Shown in pieces: positions 1 through 12,732 of a stretch of DNA of 64,000 nt. Within the stretch, counting starts at the first letter, position 1. Each line of letters starts with the position of its first letter. A program made the position numbers and the translations under genes. Origin of the DNA: Escherichia coli (lineage in GTDB: Bacteria > Pseudomonadota > Gammaproteobacteria > Enterobacterales > Enterobacteriaceae); NCBI RefSeq assembly GCF_013315695.1, contig NZ_CP054353.1, one strand, 5' to 3'. The notes beneath the pieces were generated by a model. The model saw nothing but the letters and a program-made list of their open reading frames with translations, did no database searches and was not told where the DNA came from.

Positions 1-63
1 TATCCCTGCGGCCTGATCCGGGCGCAAATTGCCATTACGGCAGCCTGACGCCCGCATGACATG

Positions 64-171
64 TTACTTCCGCTTGTTCAGCCAGTTCACGATCATACTG
101 GCAAGAATGCCAGCAATGACCGGAGCCGCTAAATCATGCCAGAAGGCCATGCCCAGCTCTGCGAGCGTCAT
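64..171 (-). CDS. ldr: Type I toxin Ldr, 35-aa membrane peptide (copy 1)
   Basis: C-terminal 35 codons of ORF 64..339 read MTLAELGMAFWHDLAAPVIAGILASMIVNWLNKRK, matching the Ldr toxin family of the K-12 LDR loci. Confidence 0.85.
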   Translation of the reverse strand: MTLAELGMAFWHDLAAPVIAGILASMIVNWLNKRK

Positions 172-219
172 ATAGCCGCCTGTGTTGTAATGACAACGTT
201 TCGCGGCTATTATTGAGTT

Positions 220-288
220 GTTTGGGTTCAAGATTAGCCCCCGTGATGTTGTCAGGTGCATACCTGCAACGTGCGGGGGTTTTCTCTC
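220..288 (+). ncRNA. rdl: Putative Rdl antisense RNA (copy 1), antitoxin of the ldr/rdl pair
   Basis: Plus-strand promoter-like hexamers TTGTAA (185-190) and TATTAT (208-213) with 17-bp spacing; GC hairpin 237-279 followed by TTTT at 280-284. Position is inferred; ends not verified. Confidence 0.45.
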
Positions 289-546
289 TCCAGCAACCAA
301 TGCCACCAGGGATAAAGCCCCCGCAACATTGCGCCTCACCGGAACCCTTCCGGCTTGCCGCTGATTCTACGACTGTTTTTCTGTTCCGGAATCCATCACT
401 TCTTCACTCTGTGCTGCGCATTCAGCAGAATATTATCCGCTTGCAACCGTTGCATTTTTCTTACGAAAAAGGCCGCAGAGTTTTATCCCTGCGGCCTGGT
501 CCGGGCGCAAATTGCCATTACCGCAGCCTGACGCCCGTCTGACACG

Positions 547-654
547 TTACTTCCGCTTGTTCAGCCAGTTCACGATCATGCTGGCAAGAATGCCAGCAAT
601 GACCGGAGCCGCTAAATCATGCCAGAAGGCCATGCCCAGCTCTGCGAGCGTCAT
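547..654 (-). CDS. ldr: Type I toxin Ldr (copy 2)
   Basis: Same 35-aa peptide as copy 1, 483 bp downstream. Confidence 0.85.
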   Translation of the reverse strand: MTLAELGMAFWHDLAAPVIAGILASMIVNWLNKRK

Positions 655-702
655 ATAGCCGCCTGTGTTGTAATGACAACGTTTCGCGGCTATTATTGAG
701 TT

Positions 703-771
703 GTTTGGGTTCAAGATTAGCCCCCGTGATGTTGTCAGGTGCATACCTGCAACGTGCGGGGGTTTTCTCTC
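703..771 (+). ncRNA. rdl: Putative Rdl antisense RNA (copy 2)
   Basis: Same promoter/hairpin/T-tract arrangement as copy 1 at +483 bp. Confidence 0.45.
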
Positions 772-1029
772 TCCAGCAACCAATGCCACCAGGGATAAAG
801 CCCCCGCAACATTGCGCCTCACCGGAACCCTTCCGGCTTGCCGCTGATTCTACGACTGTTTTTCTGTTCCGGAATCCATCACTTCTTCACTCTGTGCTGC
901 GCATTCAGCAGAATATTATCCGCTTGCAACCGTTGCATTTTTCTTACGAAAAAGGCCGCAGAGTTTTATCCCTGCGGCCTGGTCCGGGCGCAAATTGCCA
1001 TTACCGCAGCCTGACGCCCGTCTGACACG

Positions 1030-1137
1030 TTACTTCCGCTTGTTCAGCCAGTTCACGATCATGCTGGCAAGAATGCCAGCAATGACCGGAGCCGCTAAAT
1101 CATGCCAGAAGGCCATGCCCAGTTCTGCGAGCGTCAT
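1030..1137 (-). CDS. ldr: Type I toxin Ldr (copy 3)
   Basis: Same 35-aa peptide; the surrounding unit has a few substitutions relative to copies 1-2. Confidence 0.8.
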   Translation of the reverse strand: MTLAELGMAFWHDLAAPVIAGILASMIVNWLNKRK

Positions 1138-1185
1138 ATAGCCGCCTGTGTTGTAATGACAACGTTTCGCGGCTATTCTTGAGTG

Positions 1186-1254
1186 GTCTAGGTTCAAGAT
1201 TAGCCCCCGTGATGTTGTCAGGTGCATACCTGCAACGTGCGGGGGTTTTCTCTC
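1186..1254 (+). ncRNA. rdl: Putative Rdl antisense RNA (copy 3); its -10 region differs (tattct instead of tattat)
   Basis: Positional equivalence with copies 1-2; hairpin plus T-tract retained. Confidence 0.35.
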
Positions 1255-1612
1255 TCCAGCAACCAATGCCACCAGGGATTAAGCCCCCGCAACATTGCGC
1301 CTCACCGGAACCTTTCCGGCTTGCCGCTGATTCTACGATTGCTTTTTACCGTCAGCACCCGGCAATCTTCCTCATTGCGTGATGCATTCCAGCTTAATTT
1401 CTTTATTTGCAATAGTTGCAGTTCATATCCGGGCTGACTCCAGACTGGTAGTGAAATGCGCAATTTTGTAGAATTGCGCCTCCTCGCGACCTCCCCAGTG
1501 AATCTGTTGCCTCATTTTTTACATACTGCGTATTCGACTTCTCCACCTGTTGCGCAAGAGAAACTGGGTTTATTCATTTTTGCGAGGCCGACTTCTTTCT
1601 GGACAGGACTTT

Positions 1613-2884
1613 ATGCAGCACAACACACTACCGAAACACGATCAGAAATTGCCGTTTACACGCTACGACTTCGGCTGGGTTTTATTATGCATAGGCATGG
1701 CGATTGGTGCCGGAACCGTGCTGATGCCAGTACAAATTGGCTTGAAGGGAATTTGGGTATTTATTACCGCAGCGATCATTGCTTATCCTGCCACCTGGGT
1801 AGTGCAGGACATTTATTTAAAAACCCTTTCTGAAAGCGATTCCTGTAATGACTACACCGATATTATCAGTCATTACCTGGGGAAGAACTGGGGAATTTTC
1901 CTCGGGGTTATCTACTTTTTGATGATTATCCACGGGATTTTCATCTACTCTCTCTCCGTGGTTTTCGACAGCGCCTCGTACCTGAAAACCTTCGGTTTAA
2001 CCGATGCCGATCTTTCTCAATCTCTATTTTATAAAGTCGCCATTTTCGCCGTACTGGTGGCAATTGCGTCTGGTGGTGAACGATTACTGTTTAAGATTTC
2101 CGGGCCAATGGTGGTGGTCAAAGTAGGGATTATCGTCGTGTTCGGTTTTGCGATGATCCCGCACTGGAATTTCGCCAATATAACCGCCTTCCCGCAAGCC
2201 TCCGTCTTTTTCCGCGATGTCCTGCTTACCATTCCCTTTTGCTTCTTTTCTGCGGTATTTATTCAGGTACTTAACCCAATGAATATTGCCTATCGTAAAC
2301 GGGAAGCGGATAAAGTACTGGCAACCCGGCTCGCGCTGCGTACCCACCGAATTAGTTATGTCACGCTCATCGCGGTGATCCTGTTTTTTGCCTTTTCGTT
2401 TACCTTCTCAATTAGCCACGAAGAAGCCGTTTCTGCCTTTGAACAAAATATCTCGGCACTGGCACTGGCCGCGCAGGTGATCCCTGGGCATATCATTCAT
2501 ATCACCTCTACGGTGCTGAATATCTTTGCCGTACTGACCGCATTCTTTGGCATTTATCTCGGTTTCCACGAGGCCATTAAAGGCATTATTCTCAATCTGT
2601 TAAGCCGAATTATTGATACCAGGAAAATTAATTCACGCGTGCTGACTCTGGCGATTTGCGCTTTTATCGTCATTACGTTGACGATTTGGGTTTCGTTTCG
2701 TGTATCGGTGCTGGTGTTCTTTCAGTTGGGAAGCCCGTTATATGGCATTGTGTCGTGCCTCATTCCGTTTTTCCTGATCTATAAAGTCGCACAACTGGAA
2801 AAACTTCGCGGATTTAAAGCCTGGCTGATTCTGCTTTACGGCATTTTGCTATGCTTGTCGCCACTGTTGAAGCTGATTGAGTAA
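1613..2884 (+). CDS. yhjV: Inner-membrane amino-acid transporter family protein YhjV (423 aa)
   Basis: ORF 1550..2884; the internal Met at 1613 ([15 protein letters not shown]...) gives the 423-aa length I recall for YhjV; many predicted transmembrane segments. Confidence 0.9.
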
Positions 2885-6840: not shown

Positions 6841-6899
6841 AACCCGGATTCTCTATAATGACCCGCAGCCTGGAACTGCGTGTCTGTATTGCTCACAAA

Positions 6900-11523: not shown

Positions 11524-12732
11524 TTAAAGGGAGCCATGCGCCTCACGCAACATTTTCTGCTCTGGCTGACGAATCGTCGTAGAGAGCGCCAGTGACAGAA
11601 TCAGCAGGGCGAAAATCACGTAGAAGGTCACATAGAAGCCGCCAAACAGTGAGGCGATAATCGACCCACAAATGCTGCCGATACCGAAACCGAGATAAAT
11701 CACACCGTAGTTTTTCGCCAGGTTATTGAGGCCGAAGAACTCACTGACCAGTGACGGGAACACCGTGATAGTGCCGCCAAAGTTAAATGCCACGCAGGCA
11801 ATCGCTGCAAAGAACGTCACTGCATTCAATGGTGCAAACAGCAGGGCCGCCATACCCACCAGCGATATCACCTGACCAATGGTGATAACACGGATACGGG
11901 CGATTTTGTCAGACAGAATGCCCAGCACCAGACGACCAGAAAGGTTGGCGATGGAAATAACCGTCACAGCATTGGCTGCGGAAATTGCATCAAGATGCGC
12001 CAGACTTTGAGCGATATCTTTCGCTACACCAATCACATACAGACCACTCATGCACGCAGTCAGGAACATAACCGCTAACATCCAGTACTGCGGTTTACGC
12101 ATCGACTCTGCCAGGGTGTAGTCCTTCTCCACCACACCATTGCTGGTTTTCACTTCCTGCTTCGGCGCATCTTTCATTAACGTTGCGCCAAAGACAATCA
12201 TCACCAGTACAATCGCGCCCCAAATAACAAAGGTTTTTTCCAGACCCACCGTTTCGAGCAGGTGCGTGTCGATAAATTTAAAACCCAGGCTGCCCAGACC
12301 ATAAGAACCGATAGCAAAAGCAGAGATAAGTCCCTTACGCTCCGGAAACCACTTCACGCAGTTAGAGAGCGTCAACAGGTAACCCGCACCATCCGCCAGA
12401 CCAACCAACACACCGGCGCTTAACCACAGCATCATCAGGTTGTTGGAATGTGCTGTCAGGAAGAAACCTAATCCCAGCAAAATGCCGGAAGCCATAGTGA
12501 CGCGTTTAACACCAAAACGTTCCTGCAATTTGCCCGCAACAGAAGATGAAATTGCCAGCCCCAGACTTAACAAGCCGAAAGAGAAAGCAACCTGGCTTAC
12601 AGGAGCCCCCAGCTTGGCAGAAAGCGCACCGTTAAACAGACTCCAGGTATAAACCGACCCCAGAGCAAACTGGGTAATGATAGTACCGATGAGTGTCAGC
12701 CAGCGAGTACGCTGATAATTTGAAGGTGTCAT
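11524..12732 (-). CDS. yhjX: MFS transporter YhjX (oxalate/formate antiporter family)
   Basis: ORF 11524..12777; Met at MTPSNYQRTRW gives 402 aa; 12-TM MFS topology. Confidence 0.9.
   Translation of the reverse strand: MTPSNYQRTRWLTLIGTIITQFALGSVYTWSLFNGALSAKLGAPVSQVAFSFGLLSLGLAISSSVAGKLQERFGVKRVTMASGILLGLGFFLTAHSNNLMMLWLSAGVLVGLADGAGYLLTLSNCVKWFPERKGLISAFAIGSYGLGSLGFKFIDTHLLETVGLEKTFVIWGAIVLVMIVFGATLMKDAPKQEVKTSNGVVEKDYTLAESMRKPQYWMLAVMFLTACMSGLYVIGVAKDIAQSLAHLDAISAANAVTVISIANLSGRLVLGILSDKIARIRVITIGQVISLVGMAALLFAPLNAVTFFAAIACVAFNFGGTITVFPSLVSEFFGLNNLAKNYGVIYLGFGIGSICGSIIASLFGGFYVTFYVIFALLILSLALSTTIRQPEQKMLREAHGSL

Follow-up and report, generated by a model that had tools for sequence, protein, structure and literature searches.

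The window analysed here is a stretch of 64,000 nt of Escherichia coli DNA, and its left end holds a head-to-tail array of ldr/rdl toxin–antitoxin units immediately upstream of the gene yhjV, as the preliminary description had said. Tandem Repeats Finder reported a repeat over positions 1–1346/1347 with a period of 483, 2.8 copies, 98% matches, no indels and a score of 2587, a signal far above chance expectation. The placement of the array between bcsG and yhjV was seen on the yhjV side in the window itself and on the bcsG side in three genomes with a 99.9–100% identical flank. The features of the locus are given below, with the evidence for each in parentheses.

1–1346, no strand: LDR-D tandem array (Tandem Repeats Finder, register alignment, blastn of unit 2 against the window)
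1–14, minus: partial ldr mRNA terminator hairpin of unit 1, distal half, cut by the window edge (sequence identical to 484–497)
64–171, minus: unit 1 ldr toxin ORF, 35 aa, LdrD with F3L (ORF call, Pfam, PDB match)
185–213, plus: rdl promoter of unit 1, TTGTAA-17-TATTAT, rare -10 variant (promoter scan)
220–285, plus: rdl antisense RNA of unit 1 (Rfam RF01813, 90.4 bits, model positions 1–66 of 66)
252–329, also 735–812 and 1218–1295, minus: candidate leader ORF, 25 aa, MLRGLYPWWHWLLERENPRTLQVCT, in the ldr 5' UTR (conservation)
364–369 (unit 1), 847–852 (unit 2) and 1330–1335 (unit 3), minus: putative ldr -10 hexamer TAGAAT (conservation)
374–470 and again 857–953, no strand: internal junction spacer, 97 nt (blastn)
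470–497, minus: intrinsic terminator of the unit 2 ldr mRNA, spanning the nominal unit boundary (11-bp stem with 8 GC pairs, then TTTTT)
547–654, minus: unit 2 ldr toxin ORF, peptide identical to unit 1 (ORF call)
668–696, plus: rdl promoter of unit 2, TTGTAA-17-TATTAT, the rare -10 variant again, inside the putatively converted patch (promoter scan)
695–930, no strand: switched patch in unit 2, 12 informative sites with the sequence of the preceding unit (comparison with the three closest genomes)
703–768, plus: rdl antisense RNA of unit 2 (Rfam RF01813, 90.4 bits, terminator scan)
953–980, minus: intrinsic terminator of the unit 3 ldr mRNA (terminator scan)
1030–1137, minus: unit 3 ldr toxin ORF, peptide identical to unit 1 (ORF call)
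1151–1179, plus: rdl promoter of unit 3, TTGTAA-17-TATTCT, canonical (identity to K-12 rdlA–D)
1186–1251, plus: rdl antisense RNA of unit 3 (Rfam RF01813, 90.4 bits, terminator scan, fold)
1613–2884, plus: yhjV, the gene flanking the array on the right (ORF list, synteny)

Alignment of the three 483-base registers showed 6 differing positions between units 1 and 2, while unit 3 followed units 1 and 2 to about column 373–403 and then passed into unique yhjV-proximal sequence. The earlier claim of at least three consecutive 483-bp units therefore holds for the three ldr/rdl modules but not for their full length, as the visible content is two full units and about 0.8 of a third. The array is truncated at the left window edge, as previously noted, with position 1 falling within the terminator hairpin of the unit 1 ldr transcript. 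The 97-nt junction spacer between units was missing from the fetched K-12 LDR-D and LDR-A/B/C loci by blastn, and it was used as a diagnostic marker for at least two tandem D-type units.

The three toxin ORFs encode one and the same peptide, MTLAELGMAFWHDLAAPVIAGILASMIVNWLNKRK, which bears out the 35-aa Ldr toxin that had been proposed for each unit. It matched the Pfam family PF13940 (Ldr_toxin) over its full length (residues 1–35 on model positions 1–35 of 35, E = 1e-26, 93.1 bits), and it is the same protein as WP_001295224.1, annotated in the relatives. A NCBIfam search with the 35-aa peptide matched no model, which is uninformative beside the full-length Pfam match. The toxin was 34/35 identical (97%) to K-12 LdrD and to PDB entry 5LBJ, 'Small toxic polypeptide LdrD', residue 3 being Leu in the window and Phe in K-12 LdrD; its identity to K-12 LdrA/B/C was 60%, which places it in the D-group and not the B-group. 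The Ldr/Fst superfamily signature comprises a hydrophobic helix with PxxxG, followed by a conserved Trp and a charged C-terminus (PMC7472228, PMC2887945), and it could be read directly in AAPVIAGILASMIVNWLNKRK as P17-x3-G21, W30 and the KRK tail. K-12 LdrD is toxic on overexpression according to Kawano 2002, as cited in two later papers (PMC4147584, PMC8309996), and by analogy the F3L variant would be expected to be toxic as well.

On the opposite strand, each unit gave a full-length match to the rdlD family (RF01813; 90.4 bits in every case, the gathering threshold being 50; E = 3e-19). The matches folded at -31.7 kcal/mol with a z of about -5 (-5.0 in unit 1), and all three ended in a hairpin and T-run, located by the terminator scan at 263–277 in unit 1. 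The promoter–hairpin–T-tract arrangement described earlier for an Rdl RNA was thus recovered, although the unit 3 promoter scored 8/12, just under the scan cut-off. The rdl of unit 1 is complementary to the ldr 5' UTR, 49–114 nt upstream of the ldr start codon; a gap of 48 nt separates rdl from the ldr ORF in all three units, with no overlap with the toxin ORF or the ribosome-binding site. The K-12 annotation has the same rdl/ldr geometry. The Rdl sequences of the three units differed at only 2/66 positions, and the differences lay at Rdl positions 3 and 5, in the 5' end, which reads GTCTAGG in unit 3 (K-12-like; GTCTAGA in K-12) versus GTTTGGG in units 1 and 2.

The preliminary description had singled out the rdl -10 of copy 3 as divergent. 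The difference is real, but it is copy 3 that has the canonical TATTCT; the rare derived form, TATTAT, is in copies 1 and 2. The -10 hexamer TATTCT was common to K-12 rdlA, rdlB, rdlC and rdlD and to all other units sampled, and K-12 rdlA–D, with the same promoter as unit 3, are expressed (PMC7373196). TATTAT was found in 3/5,426 complete genomes, once in each. TATTAT is nearer to the sigma-70 consensus than TATTCT, so more rather than less antitoxin is predicted.

The signals of the ldr transcript on the minus strand were less complete. The hexamer TAGAAT was invariant across all D-type units, with TAGTAT at the same place in K-12 LDR-A/B/C, and unit homology stopped just upstream of it; its position and conservation suggest that it may act as the ldr -10. 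The ldr transcript would then be predicted to start ~7 nt downstream of TAGAAT, close to window positions 357, 840 and 1323. The consensus scan found no full sigma-70 ldr promoter on this strand, and a search by eye for a -35 hexamer at 16–18 nt in both unit types found none that was convincing. The 25-aa ORF in the 5' UTR was conserved in K-12 LDR-A, -B and -D and frameshifted in K-12 LDR-C and in the relatives' first unit, and an in-frame ATG upstream of it occurred only in D-type units. We regard it as a candidate leader ORF, which may correspond to the proposed ldrX.

The window unit was then compared with the K-12 loci, in which a single ldrD/rdlD lies between bcsG and yhjV and an ldrABC/rdlABC triplet lies between kdsA and chaA; the preliminary description was correct in giving K-12 one copy here and a triplet elsewhere. 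K-12 MG1655 LDR-D occupies the same locus in the same orientation, and window unit 3 with its flank aligned end to end with the bcsG–yhjV intergenic region. The two were ~95% identical within the unit and shared the rdl promoter, the ldr -10 TAGAAT and the terminator; K-12 has one unit, whereas the window has at least three, plus the junction spacers. The LDR-A/B/C triplet has the same module architecture, tandem arrangement and rdl -35/-10 hexamers, and its DNA identity to the window unit was ~81% over ~395 bp. It differs in its locus, in its period (535 bp vs 483), in an unrelated inter-unit spacer and in its LdrB-group toxins.

Copy number at this locus varies between strains, as had been proposed, from one in K-12 to two to five elsewhere. 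An initial figure of 5,199 genomes with 80% or more of window 1–1700 covered was rejected as a count of triplets at yhjV because it joined separate pieces and LDR-A/B/C cross-match at ~81%; the junction-specific 97-nt probe was used in its place. Of 5,426 complete E. coli genomes, 3,270 contained the probe; the median in these was 2 junctions, which corresponds to 3 copies, and none had more than 4 junctions. From the probe counts and a 60-genome sample, we estimated that between two and five copies lie at bcsG–yhjV in ~60% of complete E. coli genomes, arrays of three being the commonest. A D-type rdl promoter 28-mer with TATTCT occurred at 12,023 places in 5,371 of the 5,426 genomes (median 2, maximum 6). 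Five units were present in MS 21-1, AF3, MSB1_4I and 2017-02-2CC, four in IAI39 and strain 10153, and two in APEC IMT5155, all annotated by RefSeq as Ldr-family toxins, and the chromosomal arrays examined were all at the same bcsG–yhjV site. The term 'amplified' is therefore apt relative to K-12 but not for the species, in which two or more LDR-D copies are the majority state and the single copy of K-12 is a minority arrangement. Ldr loci are known to evolve by lineage-specific tandem duplication, with 2–10 per genome (PMC2887945). The multi-copy LDR-D array is thus ordinary, the locus being already known and its multi-copy form already present in RefSeq annotation of thousands of genomes.

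Taken together, window 1–1346 is almost certainly the right part of the chromosomal LDR-D locus (bcsG–yhjV), in which complete ldrD/rdlD type I units follow one another head to tail. The repeat structure, the intact ORFs, the membership of the toxin and RNA families, the synteny and the population frequency were all established directly. Since the three genomes with a 99.9–100% identical flank each have five units, the source genome probably has five as well, with the bcsG junction of these relatives.

Transcription, toxicity and the pairing mechanism can be modelled on the K-12 literature. The minus strand of each 483-bp unit would give an mRNA of ~380 nt, with the putative TAGAAT -10, a 5' UTR of ~185 nt, the 35-aa LdrD membrane toxin and an intrinsic terminator, and the plus strand would give the 66-nt antisense RdlD from its own promoter to its terminator hairpin. 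RdlD would block toxin synthesis by pairing with the part of the ldr 5' UTR that precedes the ribosome-binding site; the literature holds this block to be indirect, as in hok/sok, and the duplex would be cut by RNase III. In K-12, northern and p19-capture evidence supports an Rdl RNA of ~60 nt that represses LdrD synthesis (PMC7373196, PMC4147584), and the ldrD/rdlD double-stranded RNA captured by p19 is RNase III-dependent (PMC7373196). RdlD represses the toxic LdrD while overlapping the 5' UTR rather than the ribosome-binding site, for which an ldrX leader model was proposed (PMC4147584), and the route by which it stops translation is not settled in the literature (PMC8309996). By analogy, rdl would be transcribed and LdrD repressed in the window units too. 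With no more than 2 of 66 positions varying among the Rdl copies, any one antitoxin RNA should be able to act on all ldr copies, and toxin and antitoxin dosage would therefore rise together. Homologous recombination between units, by unequal exchange and gene conversion, would account for the origin of the array and for changes in its size.

This organisation resembles that of hok/sok (mok), with a small membrane toxin, a stable mRNA, a long 5' UTR and a short cis-antisense RNA that pairs upstream of the toxin ribosome-binding site. A leader-ORF coupling model was put forward for both systems, although for ldr it is a proposal only (PMC4147584). The likeness is in organisation only, as the toxin families Hok and Ldr/Fst are unrelated; the Rfam sok model (RF01794) scored 24.5–26.5 bits on the ldr mRNA strand, below its gathering score of 59, and the toxin matched Ldr_toxin and not Hok. 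The ibs/sib and zor/orz systems are likewise chromosomal type I modules in tandem within one intergenic region, with strain-variable copy number (PMC2887945). They differ in belonging to other toxin and RNA families. The ibs/sib antisense RNA spans the entire toxin ORF.

The closest relatives revealed a peculiarity of unit 2. Over 22.6 kb, the flank is 99.9–100% identical to AF3 (NZ_OZ547117.1), MSB1_4I (NZ_LR898874.1) and MS 21-1 (NZ_CP146670.1), and window units 1 and 3 equal units 3 and 5 of these genomes with 0 differences. Window unit 2, compared with their unit 4, showed 12 differences, all within 695–930 and all copying their unit 3, so that TATTAT is found twice in the window and once in each of the three relatives. 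The switched patch is at least 236 bp long (range 236–541 bp). The hybrid nature of unit 2 points to either gene conversion or an assembly/polishing artefact. A single unequal crossover was also considered and rejected: a unit with the left part of unit 4 and the right part of unit 3 would precede another unit 4, and the window goes straight to unit 5 and yhjV. Gene conversion or an artefact fits better. We tentatively suggest that a rare rdl promoter-up mutation (TATTCT to TATTAT) may have been copied between neighbouring units in this clone while the flank stayed 100% identical over 22.6 kb, a possibility to which we give well under even weight.

An assembly artefact behind the array, or behind its fine structure at least, with the repeat number expanded or unit 2 mis-phased or mis-polished, appears unlikely, at perhaps one chance in four. 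Units that differ by only 6–14 sites are hard to phase with short reads, and a RefSeq 1,449-bp circular 'plasmid', pVE-V11-M_7, is exactly 3 x 483 bp of LDR-D units, which demonstrates that assemblers mishandle this repeat; an AIEC study likewise suspected that ldr copies were missing through an error of assembly (PMC7232551). The hybrid unit 2 occurred in 0/5,426 complete genomes, and TATTAT was confined to the three relatives, once per genome. However, arrays of 2–5 units at the exact locus in thousands of independent complete assemblies argue that multiple copies are real, window units 1 and 3 recur as units 3 and 5 in three independent assemblies, and the 12 switched sites lie together in an unbroken tract, which is what one conversion event should leave behind. 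The same 1,449-bp record might suggest a mobile or excisable element that can form a small circle, instead of a locus fixed in the chromosome, since it was deposited as a plasmid and 3/6,863 junction matches fell on 'plasmids'. We consider this extremely improbable: all three plasmid matches came from that single record, the unit has no replication, integrase or transposase gene, the chromosomal arrays examined share one site, and no horizontal transfer of Ldr loci was found (PMC2887945).

Another question is whether every copy is functional. The extra copies could be decaying, non-functional duplicates, with the K-12-like unit adjoining yhjV as the only active module; deletion of Ldr loci has no reported phenotype (PMC7472228), and the sequence upstream of the ldr -10 hexamer differs in the internal units. 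In the relatives, the bcsG-proximal unit was much more diverged, with ~50 mismatches over 373 gap-free positions, although an inserted nucleotide in the leader region raises this count, and its toxin carries W30S and M26L. We nevertheless find decay of the extra copies quite improbable, as the toxin ORF is intact and identical in all three window units, and each also has a full-score rdl, promoter motifs and terminators. Internal-unit sequences are moreover 94–100% conserved species-wide, and units 1 and 2 have an rdl -10 nearer to consensus than the canonical one.

The locus, a textbook chromosomal type I toxin–antitoxin system, has little importance beyond its correct annotation. As ~60% of genomes carry 2–5 D-type units, the natural gene dose is higher than K-12 deletion and dosage experiments suggest. 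Assemblies are also at risk from the 483-bp repeat; given that a RefSeq 'plasmid' consists of three circularised units, copy number and unit SNPs should be trusted only with long reads that span the array. If rdl variants are indeed copied from unit to unit, concerted evolution of a toxin–antitoxin array would be under way, and selection favouring more antitoxin relative to toxin in an array of five copies may also have played a part. The rdl promoter variant, possibly spread by conversion, would provide a small, testable example of concerted evolution.

Tandem Repeats Finder resolved window positions 1-1347 into one array with a period of 483 bp, 2.8 copies, 98% matches and no indels, confirming that the tandem repeat array of the preliminary description is real. 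Alignment of the three 483-base registers showed that six positions separate unit 1 from unit 2, and that unit 3 tracks both to approximately column 373-403 before passing into unique sequence toward yhjV. Window base 1 falls within the terminator hairpin of the unit 1 ldr transcript; the array is therefore cut by the window edge, as had been stated. The features of units 1, 2 and 3 are as follows.

64-171, 547-654 and 1030-1137, minus strand: ldr ORFs, 35 codons each
220-285, 703-768 and 1186-1251, plus strand: rdl RNAs, each matching the whole of Rfam RF01813 (rdlD) at 90.4 bits (gathering threshold, 50)
208-213 and 691-696, plus strand: rdl -10 of units 1 and 2, TATTAT
1174-1179, plus strand: rdl -10 of unit 3, TATTCT
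364-369, 847-852 and 1330-1335, minus strand: putative ldr -10, TAGAAT
497..470 and 980..953, minus strand: ldr intrinsic terminators of units 2 and 3, from a terminator scan
252-329, 735-812 and 1218-1295, minus strand: 25-aa ORF MLRGLYPWWHWLLERENPRTLQVCT within the ldr 5' UTR
169-322, 652-805 and 1135-1288, minus strand: sub-threshold sok matches over the ldr 5' UTR and start region, E = 0.003-0.01

The preliminary description had proposed a 35-aa Ldr ORF in every unit and an Rdl RNA on the opposite strand, and both were recovered. The three minus-strand ORFs encode the same peptide, MTLAELGMAFWHDLAAPVIAGILASMIVNWLNKRK, which is spanned by Pfam Ldr_toxin over 35/35 residues (E = 1e-26); profile and motif both place it in the Ldr family. 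The predicted rdl RNAs exceed the Rfam rdlD threshold and have the defining geometry, the promoter and the terminator, a hairpin with a T-run at the 3' end. Their predicted fold is the family's long hairpin (-31.7 kcal/mol, z ~ -5). On the plus strand they face the ldr 5' UTR, at 49-114 nt upstream of its start codon, and overlap neither the ldr ORF nor the RBS.

The units also carry the D-group identity. Since the peptide is identical to K-12 LdrD (NMR structure, PDB 5LBJ) at 34/35 residues and only 60% identical to LdrA/B/C, and since the synteny is that of K-12 ldrD, we assign them, on sequence, to the D-type LDR modules. The yhjV side of this synteny was found in the window and the bcsG side was seen in relatives. 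The K-12 arrangement given in the preliminary description, a single copy here and a triplet elsewhere, agrees with the K-12 annotation: the bcsG-yhjV intergenic region, annotated with ldrD and rdlD, aligned end to end with unit 3 plus its right-hand flank, whereas ldrABC/rdlABC lies between kdsA and chaA, with a period of 535 bp and ∼81% DNA identity to the window units. The organisational resemblance of ldr/rdl to hok/sok is real; however, Rfam sok (RF01794) scored 24.5-26.5 bits on the ldr mRNA strand, failing the gathering score of 59, and the window units are not assigned to hok/sok. The matches may reflect the similar organisation or chance.

Read on the minus strand, a functional unit (for example, window 461-943) comprises a ∼105 bp upstream spacer, TAGAAT, a ∼185-nt 5' UTR, the toxin ORF and a strong intrinsic terminator. 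This layout predicts an ldr mRNA of ∼380 nt from a putative promoter and start site. Every D-type unit has TAGAAT at this place, and K-12 LDR-A/B/C have TAGTAT. The 25-aa ORF is kept in K-12 LDR-A, -B and -D; LDR-C and the relatives' first unit have it frameshifted. It may be the leader ORF (ldrX) proposed in the literature, a candidate beside the ldr frame itself, which in D-type units is also open further upstream and offers an ATG in frame at 261, within the Rdl target. A small conserved island, TTGCAAnnGTTGCA (window 441-457 and 1407-1423), is common to internal units and the yhjV-proximal unit within otherwise unrelated sequences upstream of the ldr -10; it could be left over from ancestral homology that once extended further along the unit, or it could bind a protein.

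A multi-copy array is not unusual in E. coli. We used a 97-nt marker (window 374-470) exclusive to internal junctions between D-type units and absent from the K-12 LDR-D and LDR-A/B/C loci compared. It occurred at 6,863 places in 3,270 of 5,426 complete genomes (median 2 and maximum 4 junctions per marker-positive genome). Among 60 marker-positive genomes sampled at even intervals, 13 had one junction (two copies), 32 two (three copies), 14 three (four copies) and one four (five copies). Roughly 47% of all complete genomes have at least three copies, and ∼40%, like K-12, have no marker. These junction-based figures are lower bounds: in MS 21-1, megablast found three junctions and blastn four. 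The D-type rdl promoter 28-mer, used as a second and independent probe, matched 12,023 places in 5,371 genomes (median 2, maximum 6). All inspected junction matches lay between bcsG and yhjV, where RefSeq annotates Ldr-family toxin genes: five units in MS 21-1, AF3, MSB1_4I and 2017-02-2CC, four in IAI39 and strain 10153, and two in APEC IMT5155. This is in line with reports of lineage-specific tandem duplication, with 2-10 Ldr genes per enterobacterial genome (PMC2887945), and of ldr copy number varying between strains (PMC7232551).

The rdl -10 of copy 3 had been described as diverged. The hexamers do differ, but copy 3 is canonical, because TATTCT is common to K-12 rdlA, B, C and D and all other tabulated units, while a probe able to match only TATTAT found it in 3 of the 5,426 genomes, at one place (one unit) each. 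These three are the close relatives AF3, MSB1_4I and MS 21-1. By sequence comparison, then, copies 1 and 2 are the variants, with a clone-specific C-to-A change. As TATTAT is closer to TATAAT, antitoxin transcription is predicted to rise rather than fall.

Over window 1341-24000, identity is 100.0% with AF3 and MSB1_4I and 99.9% with MS 21-1. These three relatives have five units each, and their units 3 and 5 are exact counterparts of window units 1 and 3, so an array of five, with two units left of the window, is most probable for the source genome. Comparison of unit 2 with unit 4 of the relatives gave 12 differences, all in 695-930, a tract over which unit 2 equals the preceding unit exactly, TATTAT included. 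Unit 2 is a mosaic, its left part matching the relatives' unit 4 and its right part their unit 3, with the 12 sites switched in a single tract of 236 bp or more, up to about 541 bp, next to 22.6 kb of 100% identical flank. This hybrid occurred in none of the 5,426 complete genomes. A single unequal crossover was rejected because another unit 4 would have to follow the hybrid. The pattern points to gene conversion or to an assembly or polishing error, and both fit. That this repeat misleads assemblers is evident from a circular RefSeq 'plasmid', pVE-V11-M_7 (NZ_AP027985.1, 1-1449), which consists of exactly three 483-bp LDR-D units with one Ldr toxin gene each and no other content, and is almost certainly a tandem repeat closed to a circle by the assembler rather than a replicon.

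The bcsG-proximal unit of the five-copy arrays (MS 21-1, L001, 4097-4204; the close relative L004, 2097-2204) is far more divergent than the others, with ∼50 mismatches over 373 gap-free compared positions, a count inflated by a 1-nt insertion. Its toxin carries M26L and W30S, plus A24V in MS 21-1; the loss of W30, a tryptophan conserved across the superfamily, may have weakened this copy. The flanking genes are repeatedly damaged in the lineage: in MS 21-1, bcsG contains an internal stop and yhjV an IS1 (L001, 2331-4010 and 6613-8661), bcsG of IAI39 is truncated by IS4 (L006, 1-2493), and AF3 and MSB1_4I have a partial bcsE (L004/L005, 1-146). In the window, yhjV is intact.

Overall, the preliminary description was accurate and correctly interpreted, but the arrangement is common and has been both described and annotated before. 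Only the doubling of the rare rdl promoter variant within a hybrid unit is mildly new, and it stems either from a recent conversion or from faulty assembly.

The mode of action can be described from published K-12 work. LdrD, a membrane-active peptide, arrests growth and causes nucleoid condensation when overexpressed, and RdlD blocks this; because RdlD pairs with the ldr 5' UTR rather than the RBS, its action is considered indirect, as for Sok via mok (PMC4147584, PMC8309996). In vivo capture has yielded an ldrD/rdlD duplex whose turnover requires RNase III (PMC7373196). The window units would most probably likewise produce LdrD, together with an RdlD expected to pair with the ldr 5' UTR and to repress indirectly. 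As Rdl differs between the units at only 2/66 positions, the Rdl of one unit would be expected to repress the ldr of the others, and the gene doses of toxin and antitoxin would increase jointly with copy number.
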